IMG/VR virus record: IMGVR_UViG_2558860170_000008
Strand: one strand, 5' to 3'
Source: a virus
Taxonomy: Duplodnaviria > Heunggongvirae > Uroviricota > Caudoviricetes
DNA length: 53,298 nt
Shown here: piece after piece, positions 25,121-44,219 of the stretch
Layout of the letters: every line of letters begins with the position of its first letter
Numbering within the stretch: the stretch's first letter is position 1
The notes under the pieces: model-generated
Told to the model about the DNA's origin: nothing
Database searches by the model: none
Seen by the model: the letters and a program-made list of their open reading frames with translations, nothing else
Program-made: the position numbers and the translations under genes

Positions 25121-25241
25121 ATTGCCTCCGCATAAAGGATGAATATAAAATAAACAGGCGGTCAGTGTACGCTTAACTGGTAAAGTCGGTGCCTGCCTCC
25201 GGGTGGATCATGTATGCGGGTTCGACCCCCGCCACTGACCG

Positions 25242-32697: not shown

Positions 32698-33120
32698 TCA
32701 GAAAAGCCGTGGCTGCGTGCGTTCCTGATGCAGGCGACGCTGGTTGCGGATAACGGAGTAAATCTGCGTCTCTGACATCTGGTAGTGGCGGCGCAGGGTT
32801 TCAATTTTTTCGCCCTGGCTCCAGCGGGAAAAAATTTCATTATTGCGCAGTTCGGTGAAAAGGGATTCACCGACCGGGAGATAATAACCACGCCCGCCCA
32901 TGTACCCGGCCTGTGCGGCTGCAACCTTACGGGCAAGCATTCCCGCCTGAGCAGGTTCAATCCCCTGACGGTGCAGTTCAGCACTGATCACATCAACCAG
33001 GTCCCGCAGCGTGCCGGGCCAGTTCTTTTTCAGCTCATCATCAGGAATATCATCCAGACGGTCAATCAGCGCGTGCAGCTGTTCGCTGTCACCAAACATG
33101 CTCATCTGTGTTTCAGCCAT
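32698..33120 (-). CDS. Mor/C-family phage transcriptional activator
   Basis: 140-aa ORF; C-terminal HTH region ...GGRGYYLPVGESLFTELRNNEIF...ETQIYSVIRNQRRL matches the Mu Mor/C pattern. Confidence 0.75.
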   Translation of the reverse strand: MAETQMSMFGDSEQLHALIDRLDDIPDDELKKNWPGTLRDLVDVISAELHRQGIEPAQAGMLARKVAAAQAGYMGGRGYYLPVGESLFTELRNNEIFSRWSQGEKIETLRRHYQMSETQIYSVIRNQRRLHQERTQPRLF

Positions 33121-33190: not shown

Positions 33191-33703
33191 TTAAAAGGGG
33201 GAGGATTCTTCATACAGCCTGCAAACGCGCTCATAACTCATCACTGTACGCGCTGGCATCCCCAGCACATCCAGCATCTTGCGGCGGTGCCAGCGTTTGA
33301 GACGCTCCAGCACATCAGAGGCCAGCGCGGGGTGTTGTTCCAGCCACTGCCAGTTAGCCACACCTTCGCCGCCGTTCTGAGCGGCCGTCTGCGATTTCAC
33401 CCAGCGGTTAAGGGCTGTTTCCCCGCCATCAGAGATAAAGCCCTGCCGGTGCATCACCTTCCAGATGGCGCGAATTTTGGCGGTCACCGTACCCGGTTTT
33501 AAGGCCCGGTTAACCGGCTTCTGACGCACTTTAAAACCGCGTTTTTTGAAAACATCCAGCACGCGGGATAACTCATCCGGTGACATATCCCGGCAACTGG
33601 GTTTGCCGGTGGCTGCCAGTAGTACGGATGTGTAGGTCTCATGGTCAAGCTGTAGATCGCGTTTTGCGACATGTATTAAGGTAATCAGGGAAGCGCGATT
33701 CAT
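33191..33703 (-). CDS. GemA-like early regulatory protein (Mu gp16-like)
   Basis: 170-aa ORF immediately upstream of the Mor/C-like gene. Confidence 0.5.
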   Translation of the reverse strand: MNRASLITLIHVAKRDLQLDHETYTSVLLAATGKPSCRDMSPDELSRVLDVFKKRGFKVRQKPVNRALKPGTVTAKIRAIWKVMHRQGFISDGGETALNRWVKSQTAAQNGGEGVANWQWLEQHPALASDVLERLKRWHRRKMLDVLGMPARTVMSYERVCRLYEESSPF

Positions 33704-33767
33704 TATCGTGTCTCCGTAACAACAGGCGGCATGGCAACGCCGCCCGGATAAAACTAAAGGTATCGAT

Positions 33768-34178
33768 ATGAAAATAGATTACGATGAAGTATTAAGTATT
33801 CTCACAACTTTTCAGGATGCTGAAACACCTTTCCTTACACTACAGGATCTGGGCATGGCTGAGGCAGAAGGAGAGGAAAAGGATAAAAAAGTTTTTCATC
33901 TTATGCTTCTCGCTGATAATGGCTCAATTGTTAATGGTGATATGCAGTCAGAAACACCCAAATATATTGGTTTCTTTTTCCATTCTCTGGGCGTTGGTTT
34001 CAGAAACACGCCCATTATGCTTACCCAGCAGGGGCATGATTTAGCTAACGCCCTGAGAAAAAAACCAATCCTTGAAAGAATCAAAAAGGAGTTTACAGAC
34101 GCACCATTTGATCTAATTAAAGAAGTTACCAAATCAATGTTAACCAGGTTCGTCAAAGAACGTATTGGGATTGACTGA
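33768..34178 (+). CDS. Hypothetical protein on the opposite strand within the early operon; low-GC insert
   Basis: 136-aa ORF, ATG start, markedly AT-rich relative to flanking prophage DNA. Confidence 0.5.
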   Translation: MKIDYDEVLSILTTFQDAETPFLTLQDLGMAEAEGEEKDKKVFHLMLLADNGSIVNGDMQSETPKYIGFFFHSLGVGFRNTPIMLTQQGHDLANALRKKPILERIKKEFTDAPFDLIKEVTKSMLTRFVKERIGID

Positions 34179-34448
34179 ACAACTTAATTCAGCCAGTAAT
34201 CGCAGGGCGGCGACAGCCGCCTGCTTGTCACTTCTTTTAGCTATTTCCGCAAGAGTATGCACAATCCATAACGGACTTAACGCCACGGCTGAATCCAGAA
34301 TCATGTCATCCATAATAATTTCTGGCATATCCCGCTTGTCACATTCTTTATCCATAAAAGAAACGAATTTCTCTGCATCTTCCGGTTTCATGCCTCCGGC
34401 GATAAGGATTTTGCGATATTCATAAGACGATCTTAATTCAATACTCAT
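34140..34448 (-). CDS. Hypothetical protein (low-GC block)
   Basis: 102-aa ORF; overlaps the convergent 33768..34178 gene by 39 bp, so one of the two boundaries may be wrong. Confidence 0.4.
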   Translation of the reverse strand: MSIELRSSYEYRKILIAGGMKPEDAEKFVSFMDKECDKRDMPEIIMDDMILDSAVALSPLWIVHTLAEIAKRSDKQAAVAALRLLAELSCSVNPNTFFDEPG

Positions 34449-34463
34449 TATTCACCTGCCTGC

Positions 34464-34856
34464 TTAATCTGTTTCCAGTGCTTTGCTACGGGCTATAGCC
34501 TCACATTCAAAAAACACCGACTCCGGCACGCGCTCTTTTAATTCACGAACAAGGAAATCATTAACGCGTTCATGACGTCTTATATTTCTTTCCTTTTCCT
34601 CCTGGCGCAATACAGCAAGGCGGTATTCAACAGCCCGGCGTTGTTTCTGAAAGACAGCCAGTGCTTTTCTGGCAGCATTACGCCATGCATCATCGCCACA
34701 TGGTGCGTATTCAAGCTGAAATTTAATCTCTTCAATAGTTTCTTTGATTTTTGCCAGCAAGCTAAGACAGTCGCTTATTGTCTCCAGCTTTTCATTATCA
34801 ATATAACTTCTCACGCATTCACCTCCCGTAATTCCGGTAAAGCCGAAATATGACAC
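34464..34856 (-). CDS. Hypothetical protein (low-GC block); start uncertain
   Basis: 130-aa ORF overlapping the upstream gene by 46 bp; a GTG start near 34814 is an alternative. Confidence 0.45.
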   Translation of the reverse strand: MSYFGFTGITGGECVRSYIDNEKLETISDCLSLLAKIKETIEEIKFQLEYAPCGDDAWRNAARKALAVFQKQRRAVEYRLAVLRQEEKERNIRRHERVNDFLVRELKERVPESVFFECEAIARSKALETD

Positions 34857-35140
34857 CAGTGCGTCACCTGTCCGTCTTCATCTTCAAGGCAGGCTCCGGT
34901 TTCTTCATCAACAAAAAAGCCTTCATACCCCATATGGCCGATGCGCAGCTCCTGACGGTGACCATACTGAACAATCAGCACGGCAGCCTCCATATCAGGT
35001 GGGAAAGCATCATTCAGTGAATGCCAGGGATAACCGCGTAAATCCCCGAAATAAACACCGGTCAGCGTTCCGCCACAGAGCGGCATTCCGGCGGCACACA
35101 CAAGAGGTTCATCTGATTCAACAAATAAGGTCGTTATCAT
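34811..35140 (-). CDS. Hypothetical early-region protein
   Basis: 109-aa ORF with ATG start, 4-bp overlap with upstream gene. Confidence 0.5.
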   Translation of the reverse strand: MITTLFVESDEPLVCAAGMPLCGGTLTGVYFGDLRGYPWHSLNDAFPPDMEAAVLIVQYGHRQELRIGHMGYEGFFVDEETGACLEDEDGQVTHWCHISALPELREVNA

Positions 35141-36885: not shown

Positions 36886-37416
36886 TTATTTATTCAGTCC
36901 GGCGTCCTGTTCAAAAGGCTCGACATAAAAACTTTCAGCGCCTTTATTCACCTTGATACCGGCAATGCCTTTCACAGCATCCGGCTCCGCCAGGACGGCT
37001 TCCTTGTTCACTTCCTCTTTCGTGCGGATGAAACGCTCAAGCCCCATACGGCGCAGCATTTCAATCACACCTTCCACATCACGGCTGACGCTGCATGATG
37101 GCGTTCCCAGCCGCCATGACACCGTTCCGGTGGTCAGATTGGCTGTTTTGGTTTTGCCGCCGTTCGTCAGCTCATCACGGTTGGTTTTGCACCAGTCCTG
37201 AATCCCTTTAAAAAGCACTTTGATTTGCTTTTTAAGATTTTCAATCTGCGGCGTATAACGGGCGGTGATTTCTGCCACTTCGTCATTCATCGCCGTTTCC
37301 AGGCGCAGCGCCTCTCGCTGAATATCTCCCAGGGTGCGGATATCACGGCTGACTTCTTCCCGGGTCTGCGGTGCCGCCTCGGCTGCGGCCTTTAATTTTG
37401 TAACGCGTTTAGCCAT
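36886..37416 (-). CDS. gam: Gam-like host-nuclease inhibitor (DNA-end-binding, Ku-like)
   Basis: 176-aa ORF; ...LGDIQREALRLETAMNDEVAEIT...CKTNRDELTNGGKTKTANLTTGTVSWR...ERFIRTKEEVNKEAVL matches Mu Gam closely. Confidence 0.85.
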   Translation of the reverse strand: MAKRVTKLKAAAEAAPQTREEVSRDIRTLGDIQREALRLETAMNDEVAEITARYTPQIENLKKQIKVLFKGIQDWCKTNRDELTNGGKTKTANLTTGTVSWRLGTPSCSVSRDVEGVIEMLRRMGLERFIRTKEEVNKEAVLAEPDAVKGIAGIKVNKGAESFYVEPFEQDAGLNK

Positions 37417-37427
37417 TTTGTTTTTCC

Positions 37428-37721
37428 TTATTGCAGTGTGCCTGATGCTTTATGCACGCGGTGGCGTTTAATGATGGCATCCGCTCCAAAAGACTGTGCA
37501 GATGCCTGAAATTCCGCTGAGAGAAACTGAATAATTGCAGGACTGTGATACTGGAGAATACTTGCATAAACGTCACAGAGTGACGTCGGCCTGTTATCCG
37601 TATCACGTTCTGTTTTCACATCCACTCCAATCTTTTCATGCACTTCAACACAGTCATTGCCTGCCAACTTTTCGTCATGCGAAACATGATTAAATTCAAA
37701 AATAACGCGTACTTTGCTCAT
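37428..37721 (-). CDS. Hypothetical small protein, tandem paralog 1
   Basis: Start at internal ATG (MSKVRVIFEFNHVS...); N-terminus similar to the next gene. Confidence 0.5.
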   Translation of the reverse strand: MSKVRVIFEFNHVSHDEKLAGNDCVEVHEKIGVDVKTERDTDNRPTSLCDVYASILQYHSPAIIQFLSAEFQASAQSFGADAIIKRHRVHKASGTLQ

Positions 37722-37725
37722 GGAA

Positions 37726-37998
37726 TTACCCCTGTTGATTAAATTCATTACCGTTAATAACCCCGGAAGCCATGCCTCTGTCTTTCATGAATGCACTGGC
37801 TTTCATTGCCACAAACTCTGCGAAGTTTCTGCTTTCTGCCAGCATAACCACCCCAAAAATCATGGCGGGTCCATTATCTTTCTTCTTTATTCCGGTTGAA
37901 CGTATATCCAGACTTACCCCTCTGTGCGTGCTGCCATCAGAGTTTTTGCAGATAACATCTTCCTTGTATTCGAAAATAATGCGTACGACTTTACTCAT
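37726..37998 (-). CDS. Hypothetical small protein, tandem paralog 2
   Basis: MSKVVRIIFEYKEDV... shares its N-terminal ~12 residues with 37428..37721. Confidence 0.5.
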   Translation of the reverse strand: MSKVVRIIFEYKEDVICKNSDGSTHRGVSLDIRSTGIKKKDNGPAMIFGVVMLAESRNFAEFVAMKASAFMKDRGMASGVINGNEFNQQG

Positions 37999-38277: not shown

Positions 38278-38544
38278 TCACACCTCCCAGTAAACCGTGC
38301 AGCCGCTGATGCGGGTGGCCTTCACACGGCGGCGCAGGCCGTTGGTCTGTATGGTGATTTCAATTTCACCGGTTCCCTGCACGTTGCCTACCGGCGGCGT
38401 GGTTTTCAGTGCAAAACGTTGCGGATAGCGCTTACTGCGTTCCAGTACCGCACCGGCAAGTTCGGTCAGACGGCGCGCGCTGTTCAGGGAGTCGAATAAA
38501 TTCATTTTGTTACCGCAGGATTGCATATTCATATAACACCTCAT
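38278..38544 (-). CDS. Hypothetical early-region protein
   Basis: 88-aa ORF. Confidence 0.4.
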   Translation of the reverse strand: MRCYMNMQSCGNKMNLFDSLNSARRLTELAGAVLERSKRYPQRFALKTTPPVGNVQGTGEIEITIQTNGLRRRVKATRISGCTVYWEV

Positions 38545-38772
38545 TTAGCTGACTTGTTTCGCACCAACAGAACGGCATATTCCGCTGTAAACTTCTGTCG
38601 CACCTTCGCGATCAAGTCCGGCAGATATCACCATTCGTGTGCGGTCATTAAATTCAAAAAGTAAATCGCCACATTCTTTATTTTCGGCCAGTGAAATCAC
38701 CTTCACGTTATCGAAATTAACCAGGTAAAAGCGTCCGTAAATATCAGGAATATTAAATACCGCCATAATCAC
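38545..38772 (-). CDS. Hypothetical small protein in the position of Mu kil
   Basis: 75-aa ORF immediately downstream of the B-like gene. Confidence 0.4.
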   Translation of the reverse strand: MIMAVFNIPDIYGRFYLVNFDNVKVISLAENKECGDLLFEFNDRTRMVISAGLDREGATEVYSGICRSVGAKQVS

Positions 38773-39710
38773 ACCTGTGAGAGTAATTCAGGGTTGGTAT
38801 AAACCTCTTTAAAGGCCGCATTAATATGTTTTTCTGTCAGCGCCGCGCCTTCACCGCTGGCGGTGAGCCACGCCTGGTTAAGCGTATGTGTCAGAACGCG
38901 TAACGCTCCCGGCTTTTCAGCGATAGCCTGCATGACGGCCAGCTCGGCCTCACCACTGATCCCCCACGCCATGGCAATGGCCAGCACATCCGCCTTTTTG
39001 GCCTTGCGAAGTTGTTTTGTACGGGCAAGACGGCTGAACAGGCGCGATAAATCATCAAAGGCGCGGCGTCCACCTTTAAACAATCCGCGCGGGTTACCAA
39101 TAAGCACCATCCCGATCCCCGTGGCGTCCTGAATTGCCCGGAGTTGCTCCAGACCGTCAATACCAAGATGATCCGCCTCATCCACAATCACCAGTCCACG
39201 CGTTCCCATCAGGCGACGGCGGATGGCGCGGGATAATGCCCCTTTGTTCGCGCGGGTGTAATCAATCCCCAGCGCATCGGCCAGCTCCAGCAGACACTCC
39301 GTGACGCTGGAGTGCGCGGGTGACAGGGTGATCATCCAGGTGTTTGGTTGCTCCTGGCAGTAATTACGGGCAGTGGCCGTTTTACCCACACCCGGTACGC
39401 CCACAATAACGTTAATACAGCCCATCAGGCGAACCGCCTGAAACAGTGCGCGCAGCTCCTGGACTGTCTGAGTTTCCACAAACTGCGGCGGTTCCGGCAG
39501 TGCGCTTTGTTTATTCCAGTTCTCATACCAGGAGCGCAGGGAAGCAGCCACAGCAGCGTTATCGCCTTTATATTTTCCCTTACGGAAAGCCGATAATGTG
39601 CCGTCGGAAATTCCCGCCTCTCTGGCGATGGCATACTGCGTCAGTACGCCGCCATCAATAAGTTCATCAATGGTCTTGATTACATCGTTAATATCGGTCA
39701 TATTATTCAC
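38769..39710 (-). CDS. MuB-like transposition ATPase / target DNA activator
   Basis: 313-aa ORF; N-terminal HTH, Walker A GVPGVGKT, ...LVIVDEADHLG..., C-terminal ...KPGALRVLTHTL; strong resemblance to Mu B. Confidence 0.85.
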   Translation of the reverse strand: MNNMTDINDVIKTIDELIDGGVLTQYAIAREAGISDGTLSAFRKGKYKGDNAAVAASLRSWYENWNKQSALPEPPQFVETQTVQELRALFQAVRLMGCINVIVGVPGVGKTATARNYCQEQPNTWMITLSPAHSSVTECLLELADALGIDYTRANKGALSRAIRRRLMGTRGLVIVDEADHLGIDGLEQLRAIQDATGIGMVLIGNPRGLFKGGRRAFDDLSRLFSRLARTKQLRKAKKADVLAIAMAWGISGEAELAVMQAIAEKPGALRVLTHTLNQAWLTASGEGAALTEKHINAAFKEVYTNPELLSQV

Positions 39711-41875: not shown

Positions 41876-42124
41876 TCATGACGCCTTTCTCATATAGCTC
41901 TTAACCTGGTATCGACTGGGCCAGATTTCTTCAGGTGATACCCCAAGAGCATCAGCAATTATTTGCTGATACGGTCGGCAAGGAGTACGTAATACGCTTT
42001 TCAGCGAATCCCTGCTGTAACCAGCCTTTAAAGATAAAGAGCGCAGTGATAAGCCTGCCATGTGTAAGCGCGCCTTGATGATTTCAGGCGGCCAATCGTG
42101 ATCTGAAACTTCTCTTCTACTCAT
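41876..42124 (-). CDS. ner: Ner-like DNA-binding early regulator
   Basis: 82-aa ORF; ...QQIIADALGVSPEEIWPSRYQ matches Mu Ner (...EQIIANALETKPEVIWPSRYQ). Confidence 0.8.
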   Translation of the reverse strand: MSRREVSDHDWPPEIIKARLHMAGLSLRSLSLKAGYSRDSLKSVLRTPCRPYQQIIADALGVSPEEIWPSRYQVKSYMRKAS

Positions 42125-42195
42125 ACTTCCTCTATTCTAAAAAGTTACCCGCGCGGATATTCGTGCGGATATCTGTACGGGTAAATAATGCATCA

Positions 42196-42232
42196 CCAAA
42201 AATACCAAATCAAGGTATTTTTGGTATTTTGG
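42196..42232. promoter_or_regulatory. Operator-like palindrome CCAAAAATACC-N7-GGTATTTTTGG (plus a further TATTTTGG) in the divergent c / ner-A-B control region
   Basis: Inverted repeat seen directly between the repressor and ner starts. Confidence 0.45.
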
Positions 42233-42314
42233 CTAATTTTTGCTTTTATCCTTATTTTTCAATTGGATAAATAGAAAGAAACCTTTCCTTAGAAAAGCAC
42301 CAAGAGGTATCTTT

Positions 42315-42845
42315 ATGTCGCAGGGAAAAGAACCTGTTATTGAACGTATTGGAATGCTTACAAAGCGCTACCCTTCAAGAAGTGCAGCTGCCAGAGCGTG
42401 GGGAATCAATATCAACACATTAAACAGCTATTTCAAGGGAGGACAAACACAACCAGCCCCCAGAGAAAGTATCCTTATACGAATTTCTGAAAGTGAAGGC
42501 GTTAGTCTTGAGTGGCTTAAAGAGGGCAAGGGTGAATTACCAAACGATATTGGTATTTATGGTAATTTTGGTTGTTCTGGTGATAAGGGAGATCAGCTTA
42601 CACAGATGCTTTCATTCCTTACGAAAGACGAACGAGAACAGTTAACCAATCTCCTTGCTCGCAAAGGTGTAGAGACGGTTCTGACACTGCTGAATAAAGA
42701 AAACCAAGATTTATTACAACTAGAAGGCAGGAAGCGCCTGGCTGCGTTGATGATTGTAGATATGCCAGACGATTGCGTCAGAGAGATTTTGGAAAAAACC
42801 GAGACAAGTAGGCAATCAAATCCGGTAGAATCTAAAGCGGGTTAG
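42315..42845 (+). CDS. Mu c-like repressor
   Basis: Start at ATG 42315 (MSQGKEPVIERIGMLTKRYPS...); divergent from ner; C-terminal region resembles Mu/D108 repressors. Confidence 0.75.
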   Translation: MSQGKEPVIERIGMLTKRYPSRSAAARAWGININTLNSYFKGGQTQPAPRESILIRISESEGVSLEWLKEGKGELPNDIGIYGNFGCSGDKGDQLTQMLSFLTKDEREQLTNLLARKGVETVLTLLNKENQDLLQLEGRKRLAALMIVDMPDDCVREILEKTETSRQSNPVESKAG

Positions 42846-42922
42846 TTTGGCGAGGCTGGCCCGTATGTTAGTTGCCATATAGATTTAATGAAGTTTTAAA
42901 CGCTTTAAAAAGTTGAGATCGC

Positions 42923-43080
42923 AGTATCAAAAGTTTTGCCGATTTTAGAATAAACGATTAATTATTGCACAATCGATATCAAATAGACTTTAAGCGCTCA
43001 TCCAGACATCACCTGTTTTATTTCAGTATCTTACAGGTGATTTCACCTCCTTTCACTAAAACCCTCGTTGGTATCAAATG
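42923..43080 (-). repeat. Three inverted copies of the TTTGATA(C/T) terminal motif near the prophage left end
   Basis: GGTATCAAAT at ~43070, GATATCAAAT at ~42978, AGTATCAAAAG at ~42925; mirror the three copies at 4094..4160. Confidence 0.45.
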
Positions 43081-43707
43081 ATTCACCTGGTTACACAGCG
43101 CATTCCTTACCCAGGCCAGGAAATCACTCTTAGTGTCAAAACGGATAACATCTTCAGGCAGAAAAGCACACCCAAAGCCGAATGCGCCGGGTATCGCCAG
43201 ACGGCCTTTTGTCCGGTCGTAAATGTCGCTCTGTGCTTCCATCGTGGCCGCACTTTTCAGCCCCAGATTATCCCGGGACTTCTGTTGTGCCTTTTCGCCT
43301 GCTGCTGCGATTTCAGACAGATGGTTAGCCGTTTTCAGAGTGCCGGTCAGCGCAGCATCAATGTCATTTTTGGCCTGCTCTGCTGCGCGGGCATAACCTG
43401 CGGCTGCCGCCACATCCTGCGCCGTCTGCTGTGCGTTTCCGGCTGCGGCCCCGGCGCTCTGCTGCGCCTGCGCCACCATTTCCTCAAAGCGTTTGACGAC
43501 ATCCGGTTTCAGGTCGCCCTCATCAGGAGCAATCAGAAAGTCATTCAGCGTGCCGGGCTTTGAGTCCTCATATACAGCAATGTCGCCAACGTTGTACTCG
43601 TTGTGCCAGCCCGGTTTCAGATACACACCATATTTTCCAGTCCGCGCATGGAAACAGTATTCACCATCGTTTCCTGTCATCACATCAGCAACAGTGTGCA
43701 TCACCAC
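43018..43707 (-). pseudogene. Lambdoid side tail fibre (Stf) N-terminal fragment, truncated at the 5' side by the IS66-family element and interrupted at the 3' side by the Mu-like prophage
   Basis: ...DIAVYEDSKPGTLNDFLIAPDEGDLKPDVVKRFEEMVAQAQ... then an Ala/Gln-rich segment, matching the N-terminal region of E. coli Stf proteins; the last ~20 codons read into the prophage end. Confidence 0.7.
43081..43090 (+). repeat. 10-bp direct repeat ATTCACCTGG, copy 2 (high-coordinate prophage junction)
   Basis: Identical to 4063..4072; position calibrated from codons 206-209 of the stf fragment. Confidence 0.7.
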
Positions 43708-43760
43708 TTCCGGGGTGTTTACCGTAAGCGTGCAGCAAGAACCGTATTGACGGGAATGTG

Positions 43761-44219
43761 TTATTCAGTCGGCAGTGCTACGCGCCAGGGGAGCAGTTCG
43801 CCGACCCGGTTTATCGGCCAGTCGGCTATGACATCAAGGACATAGCGGAGGTAGCTTTCTGGCTCCACTCCGTTCAGTTTGCACGTCCCGATCAGGCTGT
43901 ACAGCAGCGCTCCCCGCTCTCCTCCATGATCCGAACCGAAGAACAGGTAGTTTTTGCGGCCCAGACTGACCATCCGCAACGCATTTTCAGCGATGTTATT
44001 GTCCGCCTCAGCCCAGCCATCATCTGCATAGTACGTCAGCGCCGGCCACTGGTTCAGGGCATATGCGAACGCTTTCGCCAGTTCTGAGTGTCGCGACAGG
44101 GTTTTCATCTTTTCACGCAGCCAGCTTTCCAGGGATTTCAGCAGCGGTTTCGTTTTCAACTGACGTTCGGCAAGGCGCTGTTTCAGCAGGAAGATGTCGT
44201 CAGAAGAGATGTCGTTCAT
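43761..44219 (-). pseudogene. IS66-family tnpC with a large internal deletion (152 aa versus ~500 aa expected)
   Basis: N-terminal MNDISSDDIFLLKQRLAE joined directly to the conserved C-terminal region ...NIAENALRMVSLGRKNYLFFGSDHGGERGALLYSLIGTCKLNGVEP...; catalytic core absent. Confidence 0.7.

Follow-up and report, generated by a model that had tools for sequence, protein, structure and literature searches.

The viral sequence IMGVR_UViG_2558860170_000008 (Caudoviricetes), a stretch of 53,298 nucleotides (nt) that was analysed as a whole and is called the window below, is an E. coli Mu-like prophage integrated in flgK, with 99.9% identity to E. coli JE86-ST05. Directly upstream of its gemA gene lie three small open reading frames (ORFs), here named ORF A, ORF B and ORF C, and ORF A is read in the direction opposite to the other two (Table 1). 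Our tentative reading, which we rate as somewhat short of probable, is that ORF A is accessory and exchangeable and occupies a conserved slot for reverse-strand genes, that it is transcribed independently, and that it encodes a putative DNA-binding winged-helix protein. The slot lies where the Pe-driven early operon meets gemA-mor, the ORF A cassette is one of at least three alternatives used there in E. coli, and ORF A travels with the 3′ end of the overlapping gene of the ORF B family. A preliminary description of this DNA had already recognised the Mu-like early region, which is borne out by the flanking GemA and Mor, and a plus-strand ORF of 136 amino acids (aa) convergent with a minus-strand ORF, which we confirmed with a 3′ overlap of 39 nt.

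To delimit the variable part of the block, the window was compared by blastn with the prophage of E. coli 2013C-4081 (comparison locus L003), which represents the common variant, and with locus L005. The homology stopped at 33676 and restarted at 34204, and from there on the identity to the 2013C-4081-type prophage was 97.6%. Since homology was lost only over this segment, the exchanged piece consists of ORF A, the spacer upstream of it and the last 21 codons of ORF B, and the 5′ tip of gemA also falls within it. Codons 1–81 of ORF B are common to prophages without ORF A, and the C-terminal tail of ORF B switches with the cassette. At the same place 2013C-4081 has a 98-aa and a 65-aa gene, both in the forward direction, and its ORF B ends in a different and longer tail (110 aa). 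In E. coli AST46 (L004), 33723–34824 is replaced by a different convergent pair, in which the reverse gene encodes 79 aa and the forward gene 95 aa.

Counting in 5426 complete E. coli genomes showed how uneven the distribution of these parts is. The gemA of the window was found in 231 genomes, and the DNA of ORF B and ORF C had a match of any extent in 217 genomes, 124 of them with at least 80% covered. The forward cassette (98 aa plus 65 aa) was present in 215 genomes, without any reverse gene, and the AST46-type (gp14/gp15-like) cassette in 14, while the ORF A cassette (33704–34203) was present in 6. ORF B and ORF C, whose DNA is so much more widespread, are thus normal components of this prophage family, and rarity is confined to ORF A. 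Neither in composition nor in evolution do the three genes form a single unit, and the three-gene insert of the preliminary description could not be upheld, since only the exchanged segment differs from the common variant.

The opposite orientation of ORF A had been taken as a sign of late insertion, but phages of the Mu family repeatedly have a gene on the reverse strand immediately upstream of gemA. Such genes occupy the same slot in Mu, in AST46 and in about ten Mu-like lineages that carry genes of DUF2513, the family to which ORF A is assigned below. The relatives of ORF A in Mu-like prophages always lay on the strand opposite to the early operon, and this was seen in metagenomic contigs (L007–L009), Edwardsiella (L016), Pantoea (L011), Klebsiella phage Kp4866-3 (L033) and about 22 of 28 IMG/VR loci. 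The usual order was gemA on the minus strand, the ORF A relative on the plus strand and a gene of the ORF B family on the minus strand. The ORF A relative adjoined gemA in the window, in L007–L009, L016 and L033, and in most of the approximately 22 Mu-like IMG/VR loci; no full gemA match abutted it in loci of the Pantoea type. In Kluyvera (L022, L023 and L059) the pair of ORF A and ORF B relatives lies between gemA and mor, still upstream of mor, and there the ORF A relative is head-to-head with a 119-aa gene that is followed by mor. The partner proteins in Kluyvera and Klebsiella are remote relatives of ORF B (hhalign 87.7%, E = 3.4e-6), and the Kluyvera partner also has a weak match to phrog_1988. 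Among 27 loci, the overlap between the ORF A relative and its partner was 39 nt in 18, 30 nt in 6, 18 nt in 2 and 29 nt in 1. The identity among the slot occupants was 30–54%, and their association with Mu-like phages is old.

Phage Mu itself (AF083977, L034) has an 88-aa reverse ORF at 7896–8162(−), whose whole length is covered by a match to phrog_8747 (6.6e-60). It shares 62 nt with the 3′ end of gp14 (7655–7957), and its start is 70 nt away from gemA. At this slot the GenBank record of Mu gives a 55-aa forward ORF, Mu_54 (7960–8127, plus strand), which has no PHROG match, and judging from the sequence the strand call there looks doubtful. The 88-aa ORF of Mu has a positional analogue in AST46 that is annotated in RefSeq. 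In the AST46 pair, the 95-aa gene is gp14 (phrog_6075), and the 79-aa reverse gene belongs to phrog_32893 and overlaps the preceding early gene by 20 nt. The sole link between the two reverse proteins is a weak match of the Mu ORF to phrog_32893 (PHROG cross-match 5.9e-4), and BLASTP of the Mu protein against the AST46 protein was not significant. Homology of ORF A to the reverse protein of Mu or AST46 was rejected (hhalign probability about 1%), and so was homology of ORF B to Mu gp14 (hhalign probability 0.3%).

The pairwise similarity of the ORF A relatives followed that of their ORF B partners (rho 0.89, with pairs that are not independent) but not that of the neighbouring GemA proteins (rho 0.17, p 0.21), so ORF A and ORF B travel together and recombination parts them from gemA. 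Co-divergence of ORF A with GemA, which would point to a long vertical residence, was not supported by the latter value. In IMG/VR loci L050–L057, GemA and Mor are 87–99% identical to those of Mu, yet the module of ORF A and ORF B relatives is present. This close association could also mean that the two proteins are an antagonistic pair, of the repressor/antirepressor or toxin-antitoxin-like type, in which the lysogen would produce ORF A and the acidic ORF B protein would counteract it on induction. The constant tail-to-tail arrangement in Mu-like phages and the co-variation agree with such a pair, and so does Kluyvera, where both genes stand on the other side of gemA as if they had moved together. 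MexR-ArmR (PDB 3ech), in which a small protein antagonises a repressor of the MarR family and which is thus a precedent for such a pair, was among the Foldseek matches of the ORF A model described below. We nevertheless regard the pair as improbable, because about 210 E. coli genomes have ORF B but not ORF A and relatives of ORF A occur without ORF B in integron cassettes and other contexts, while the physical overlap alone can explain the co-variation. A convergent orientation is also atypical for toxin-antitoxin genes, and no toxin or antitoxin family was found in Pfam, NCBIfam or PADLOC.

Profile searches placed the ORF A protein in a known but uncharacterised family, of which it is a further member. 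It matched phrog_585 with residues 1–134 on profile positions 1–126 of 128 (E = 7.1e-18), and PF10711 (DUF2513) with residues 2–111 (23.6 bits, E = 6.6e-5), which is below the Pfam gathering cutoff of 29.6 bits for PF10711. The identical RefSeq protein, WP_000687317.1, is named "DUF2513 domain-containing", and 41 of the 45 aligned relatives of ORF A matched PF10711 (E ≤ 0.01); no match was found in NCBIfam. By these sequence matches, ORF A is best described as belonging to a divergent subfamily of DUF2513. A profile search gave 51 relatives and an exhaustive HMMER search gave 251 cluster representatives, and nearly all of the relatives are free-standing proteins of 130–150 aa. When the longer relatives were searched for domain fusions, matches to DUF2513 and of the YjcQ type were found and nothing else.

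An AlphaFold2 model of ORF A from the 45-sequence alignment had a predicted local distance difference test (pLDDT) score of 92.9 and superseded an initial model from 4 sequences, which was poor (pLDDT 62). The predicted fold is a winged helix of the MarR/PadR-like kind, and nearly all top PDB matches of the model in Foldseek were of the MarR family. When the family profile was compared with PDB sequences, the conserved LxxxGLI...PIRLTxxGHDFA was aligned to the recognition helix and wing of the MarR protein 2eth (E = 0.021). In sequence, ORF A matched neither MarR nor MarR_2 of Pfam, and 2eth was its best PDB sequence match; a fold search of BFVD with the model gave no named match. From the model, the ORF A protein is probably a DNA-binding protein with a winged helix, and it would most likely act as a sequence-specific dimer.

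A fold of this kind beside a divergent gene raises the question of regulation, and the intergenic region between gemA and ORF A carries a GC-rich inverted repeat at about 33722–33747 (GGCGGC N8 GCCGCC; in Mu, GGCGGTG N6 CACCGCC). The repeat is kept, with changes in its arms, in the window, Mu, AST46, L007, L033 and L035, and it is absent from the DUF2513-bearing loci L016, L038 and L050. In Mu the repeat (8193–8211) is inside the region annotated as the "semi-early promoter" for gemA, so the repeat belongs to the upstream region of gemA and not to the cassette. The main rival explanation is accordingly a regulator intrinsic to the phage, in which the reverse gene and its transcript would act as a gate between the early operon and gemA-mor. 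Read-through into mor could be limited by convergent transcription or by antisense pairing with the Pe transcript; in a second variant, the winged-helix protein would be a divergent repressor of the MarR type, binding the inverted repeat to control the semi-early promoter of gemA-mor. In the MarR family, a regulator gene divergent from its target is the common arrangement. The position and orientation are strictly conserved, always upstream of mor and head-to-head with gemA or with the 119-aa gene of Kluyvera, and the repeat with its arm changes, placed in Mu within the annotated promoter region, fits the second variant. We consider a regulator of this kind possible but rather unlikely, because the repeat also stands beside unrelated reverse genes (of the Mu gp15 type and the 79-aa gene of AST46) and is missing from the three DUF2513 loci named above. 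Unrelated proteins fill the same slot, most such prophages in E. coli, in 215 genomes, lack a reverse gene altogether, and relatives of ORF A exist where there is neither gemA nor mor, singly in integron cassettes and in the late region of a lambdoid phage.

Outside Mu-like phages, the relatives of ORF A have no neighbour in common. Those in Vibrio (V. qingdaonensis and V. aquaticus; 29–38% identity) are lone genes between attC-like repeats of chromosomal integrons. The Vibrio cassettes are at 4487–4954 and 7178–7684 in L018 and at 3622–4107 in L027, with repeats of about 120 nt (TAACAAAC...GGCGTTAG), and L018 thus has two diverged DUF2513 copies in one array. In a lambdoid phage of Klebsiella, one relative is flanked by the lysis and terminase genes, and others adjoin a NucS-like nuclease or a Tn3 transposase. 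In a metagenome-assembled genome of Thiopseudomonas (L028, 1806–9683), a relative is located between genes for a type I HsdR and a YgjP metallopeptidase on one side and genes for AAA_13 (a PrrC/RloC-like ATPase) and DUF4062 on the other, a neighbourhood that looks like a defence island by its annotation. The GC content of the ORF A-family gene was lower than that of its locus in 23 of 23 loci.

These contexts bear on the possibility that ORF A is a single-protein factor of anti-phage defence or abortive infection, with a winged helix that would detect or bind the DNA or protein of an infecting phage. The single-gene cassettes in Vibrio integron arrays and the relative between HsdR/YgjP and AAA_13/DUF4062 genes agree with this. 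Integron cassettes are enriched in small defence systems, and one of these, Lugos, has been described as distantly helix-turn-helix-like and as causing culture lysis at high multiplicity of infection (bioRxiv 10.1101/2024.07.02.601686). A defence factor still appears unlikely to us, as none of the 45 relatives had a PADLOC match, the 136 residues contain no enzymatic or membrane effector domain, and no member from V. cholerae was among the relatives found. What the integron cassettes do suggest is a function that is not tied to Mu: autonomous occurrence in cassettes favours a generic trans-acting role (exclusion, defence or host modulation) over a Mu-specific step, and a core step of Mu development is less likely than an accessory role.

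For ORF A as an accessory gene in the reverse-gene slot, a course of expression can be proposed. The gene is on the strand of the c repressor gene (plus) and opposite to Pe, so it would need its own transcription, and from this we infer that it is expressed in the lysogen. The transcript would end at the hairpin and U-rich tract inside ORF B, and at induction antisense transcription from Pe would silence the gene. The likeliest use would be an accessory trans-acting function of the prophage, with competing DNA (through regulation or exclusion) or the host (through modulation) as the presumed target. Precedents exist in Mu-like phages of Pseudomonas, where accessory genes are confined to fixed loci (PMC4378225) and where an exclusion gene is transcribed together with the repressor (PMC9936078). 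A bolder version would be that the conserved, convergent and overlapping module of ORF A and ORF B marks an undescribed slot and that ORF A is a new kind of minimal factor for exclusion or defence, consisting of one protein, produced by the lysogen alone and silenced by Pe, and of the same family that is stockpiled in Vibrio integrons; this is a long shot in our view.

A terminator role of the hairpin in ORF B is plausible from its sequence. In L007 and L016 the equivalent site is a canonical 8-bp GC stem followed by UUUUUAU, a textbook intrinsic terminator. The role is put no higher than plausible because the same hairpin codons (DKxAAVAAL) also exist where ORF A is absent. The hairpin is inside codons 75–82 of ORF B. 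In the ORF B family DKxAAVAAL is invariant, and its opposite strand reads as a GC hairpin and then a T-run, which comes from the codons for Lys and Asp. It is exactly at this site that the mosaic junction on the right-hand side (34204) falls.

Several observations weigh against the proposal as a whole. The Foldseek statistics were modest (E 0.02–0.3, TM about 0.4), the model has an acidic loop in place of the canonical first helix of the helix-turn-helix, the isoelectric point is mildly acidic (5.2 for ORF A; family median 5.7), and Met84 of ORF A is at a wing position where at least 90% of the relatives have Arg. The defence models of PADLOC-DB v2 gave 0 matches for six proteins of the region and the 45 relatives, and "DUF2513" was found in no paper of the literature searched. 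As to transcription, a consensus scan of the window found no sigma-70-like promoter upstream of ORF A (33768), and in 9 of 12 lineages no site reached at least 8 of 12 matches within 200 nt upstream, although such scans can miss weak or activator-dependent promoters. A terminator consensus scan of the window did not call the 34202–34224 hairpin, which, being shared with prophages without ORF A, possibly reflects mere AAVAA codons.

The substitutions in the wing also lead to the question of whether ORF A is functional in this lineage. ORF A and its 99%-identical cluster of 91 sequences have Met84 and Leu92 in the PIRLTxxGHDF motif, where at least 90% of the relatives have Arg and Phe, and from the sequence these changes may mean an altered or weakened function. 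ORF A could then be a decaying hitch-hiker, or the real coding sequence could be the antisense frame on the minus strand. That frame is unusually open, with 1–4 stops in all Mu-like loci and 2–8 elsewhere. In phage Kp4866-3 (OK490420) it holds a 149-aa ORF antisense to the DUF2513 gene (6925–7374, minus strand), which abuts both neighbours: its start coincides exactly with the stop of the upstream early gene, and its end overlaps the start of gemA. The openness is probably an effect of frame and composition, which could mislead gene callers, and an antisense gene in the window was rejected on account of 3 stops in that frame. A non-functional ORF A is very improbable, since the gene is intact and 99–100% conserved in the 6 genomes and in the cluster of 91 sequences, and the plus-strand family has 251 cluster representatives and a model with a pLDDT of 93. 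ORF A is a real gene.

Table 1 Features of the block and its flanks in the window
Feature	Position	Strand	Description
mor (middle operon regulator)	32698..33120	−	PF08765, 6.7e-31; downstream of gemA
gemA (gp16 family)	33191..33703	−	PF06252, 2.8e-28; divergent from ORF A
Exchanged cassette relative to the common E. coli variant (2013C-4081 type)	33677..34203		blastn homology break
Divergent intergenic region, gemA to ORF A start codons	33704..33767		64 nt
ORF A	33768..34178	+	136 aa; phrog_585; best described as divergent DUF2513 subfamily; truly variable gene
ORF B	34140..34448	−	102 aa, acidic early protein; phrog_1988; conserved convergent partner of ORF A
Tail-to-tail (3′) overlap of ORF A and ORF B	34140..34178		39 nt
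Terminator-like hairpin and U-rich tract	34202..34238	+	hairpin 34202–34224, −17.7 kcal/mol; within ORF B codons DKQAAVAAL
ORF C	34464..34814	−	116-aa early protein; phrog_6158; start GTG 34814
ORF D	34811..35140	−	109-aa early protein; phrog_6925; upstream boundary of the low-GC stretch

Analysis of base composition supported the AT-rich block of the preliminary description. The GC content of 33704–34814 was 0.419, compared with 0.538 for the whole prophage, and this segment ranked in the lowest 1.1% of 1111-bp windows of the prophage; values for the single genes were 0.387 (ORF A), 0.424 (ORF B) and 0.430 (ORF C). Only the c/ner regulatory region near 42000 was lower. This region (41950–43100) is the GC minimum of the prophage, with 0.40 over 1.1 kb. 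The dip is real, and within the early region shorter AT-rich patches also lie at about 37400–37900 (GC 0.42) and 38500–38800, amid small early genes. Of the two findings that the preliminary description had named as speaking against its view, conservation across Mu-like phages was found for the module, but the local GC was not unremarkable.

The end of the block had been placed at 34856, which gave the third gene 130 aa. This version is over-extended, as it is contradicted both by the RefSeq annotation, which gives the GTG start of ORF C, and by phrog_6158, which matches residues 15–130; with this start, ORF C overlaps the stop of the upstream gene by 4 nt. Searches with the partner genes gave little: the ORF B profile matched nothing in PDB beyond a weak "Art22" match (E = 0.006), on which the literature gave no lead, and designed coiled coils alone were matched by ORF C. 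No flanking direct repeats or insertion scars beyond chance were found around the block, and no known RNA families in it except for one chance-level snoRNA match.

The genes of the prophage are on the minus strand in the order ner, A and B, then gam, gemA and mor, and then the tail genes, and a Mu Gp11 C-terminal domain is encoded nearby (Pfam). The interruption of flgK was read from the JE86-ST05 annotation, which has two partial flgK fragments, and would correspond to about 3796–4899 and 43269–43856 of the window; with flgK split, the host is expected to be non-motile unless a second copy of flgK is present. JE86-ST05 (NZ_AP022815.1) has three Mu-like prophage copies, at 714846, 1436273 and 837667; the DUF2513 cassette is present in two of them and the gp14/gp15-like cassette in the remaining one, so that both alleles of the slot are present in one cell. 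Its RefSeq annotation also gives a "tRNA-OTHER" that is flanked by a virion morphogenesis gene and a minor head gene (about 25154–25233 of the window; 22660–22739 of L006), and ARAGORN found no tRNA in the whole window.

If our reading is correct, phages of the Mu family keep a fixed, exchangeable slot for a gene that is read against the early operon, and ORF A would be a cheap test case for the role of lysogen-side genes embedded in lytic operons, and also for the role of DUF2513 in phage exclusion as against regulation. At present, ORF A ranks as an ordinary accessory gene, located where the prophage is mosaic. For annotation, the analysis clarifies the extent of the third gene and shows that the slot ORF in the Mu record is on the strand without family support.

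Compared with known systems, ORF A shares with morons, the autonomous transcription units of temperate phages that are active in the lysogen, the deviant GC content, the presence/absence polymorphism, a downstream terminator-like hairpin and the opposed orientation, and it differs from them in having no recognisable promoter and in keeping to one fixed slot with linkage to ORF B instead of varied sites. The suggestion of a moron thus stands for ORF A alone, where GC content, 6 as against 231 genomes and mobile behaviour support it, and is weakened by the failure to find a promoter of its own. With DUF2513/PHROG 585, which are small proteins borne by prophages and islands, ORF A shares the length class, and its subfamily has in addition a C-terminal helical region and a conserved DAPF motif; membership in DUF2513 explains nothing about mechanism. 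From the winged-helix proteins of the MarR, PadR and TubR type, ORF A differs by its acidic loop, its acidic isoelectric point and the lack of significant sequence membership, and in contrast to the Vibrio integron cassettes the copy in the window sits in a prophage. The closest parallel in position is with the reverse ORFs of Mu and AST46 (the "gp15" position), which have the same slot, orientation and 3′ overlap with the preceding early gene as ORF A. The partner gene is gp14 (phrog_6075) in Mu and AST46 and ORF B (phrog_1988) in the window, and in all three the reverse gene is separated from gemA by a gap of 64–70 nt with the same inverted repeat.

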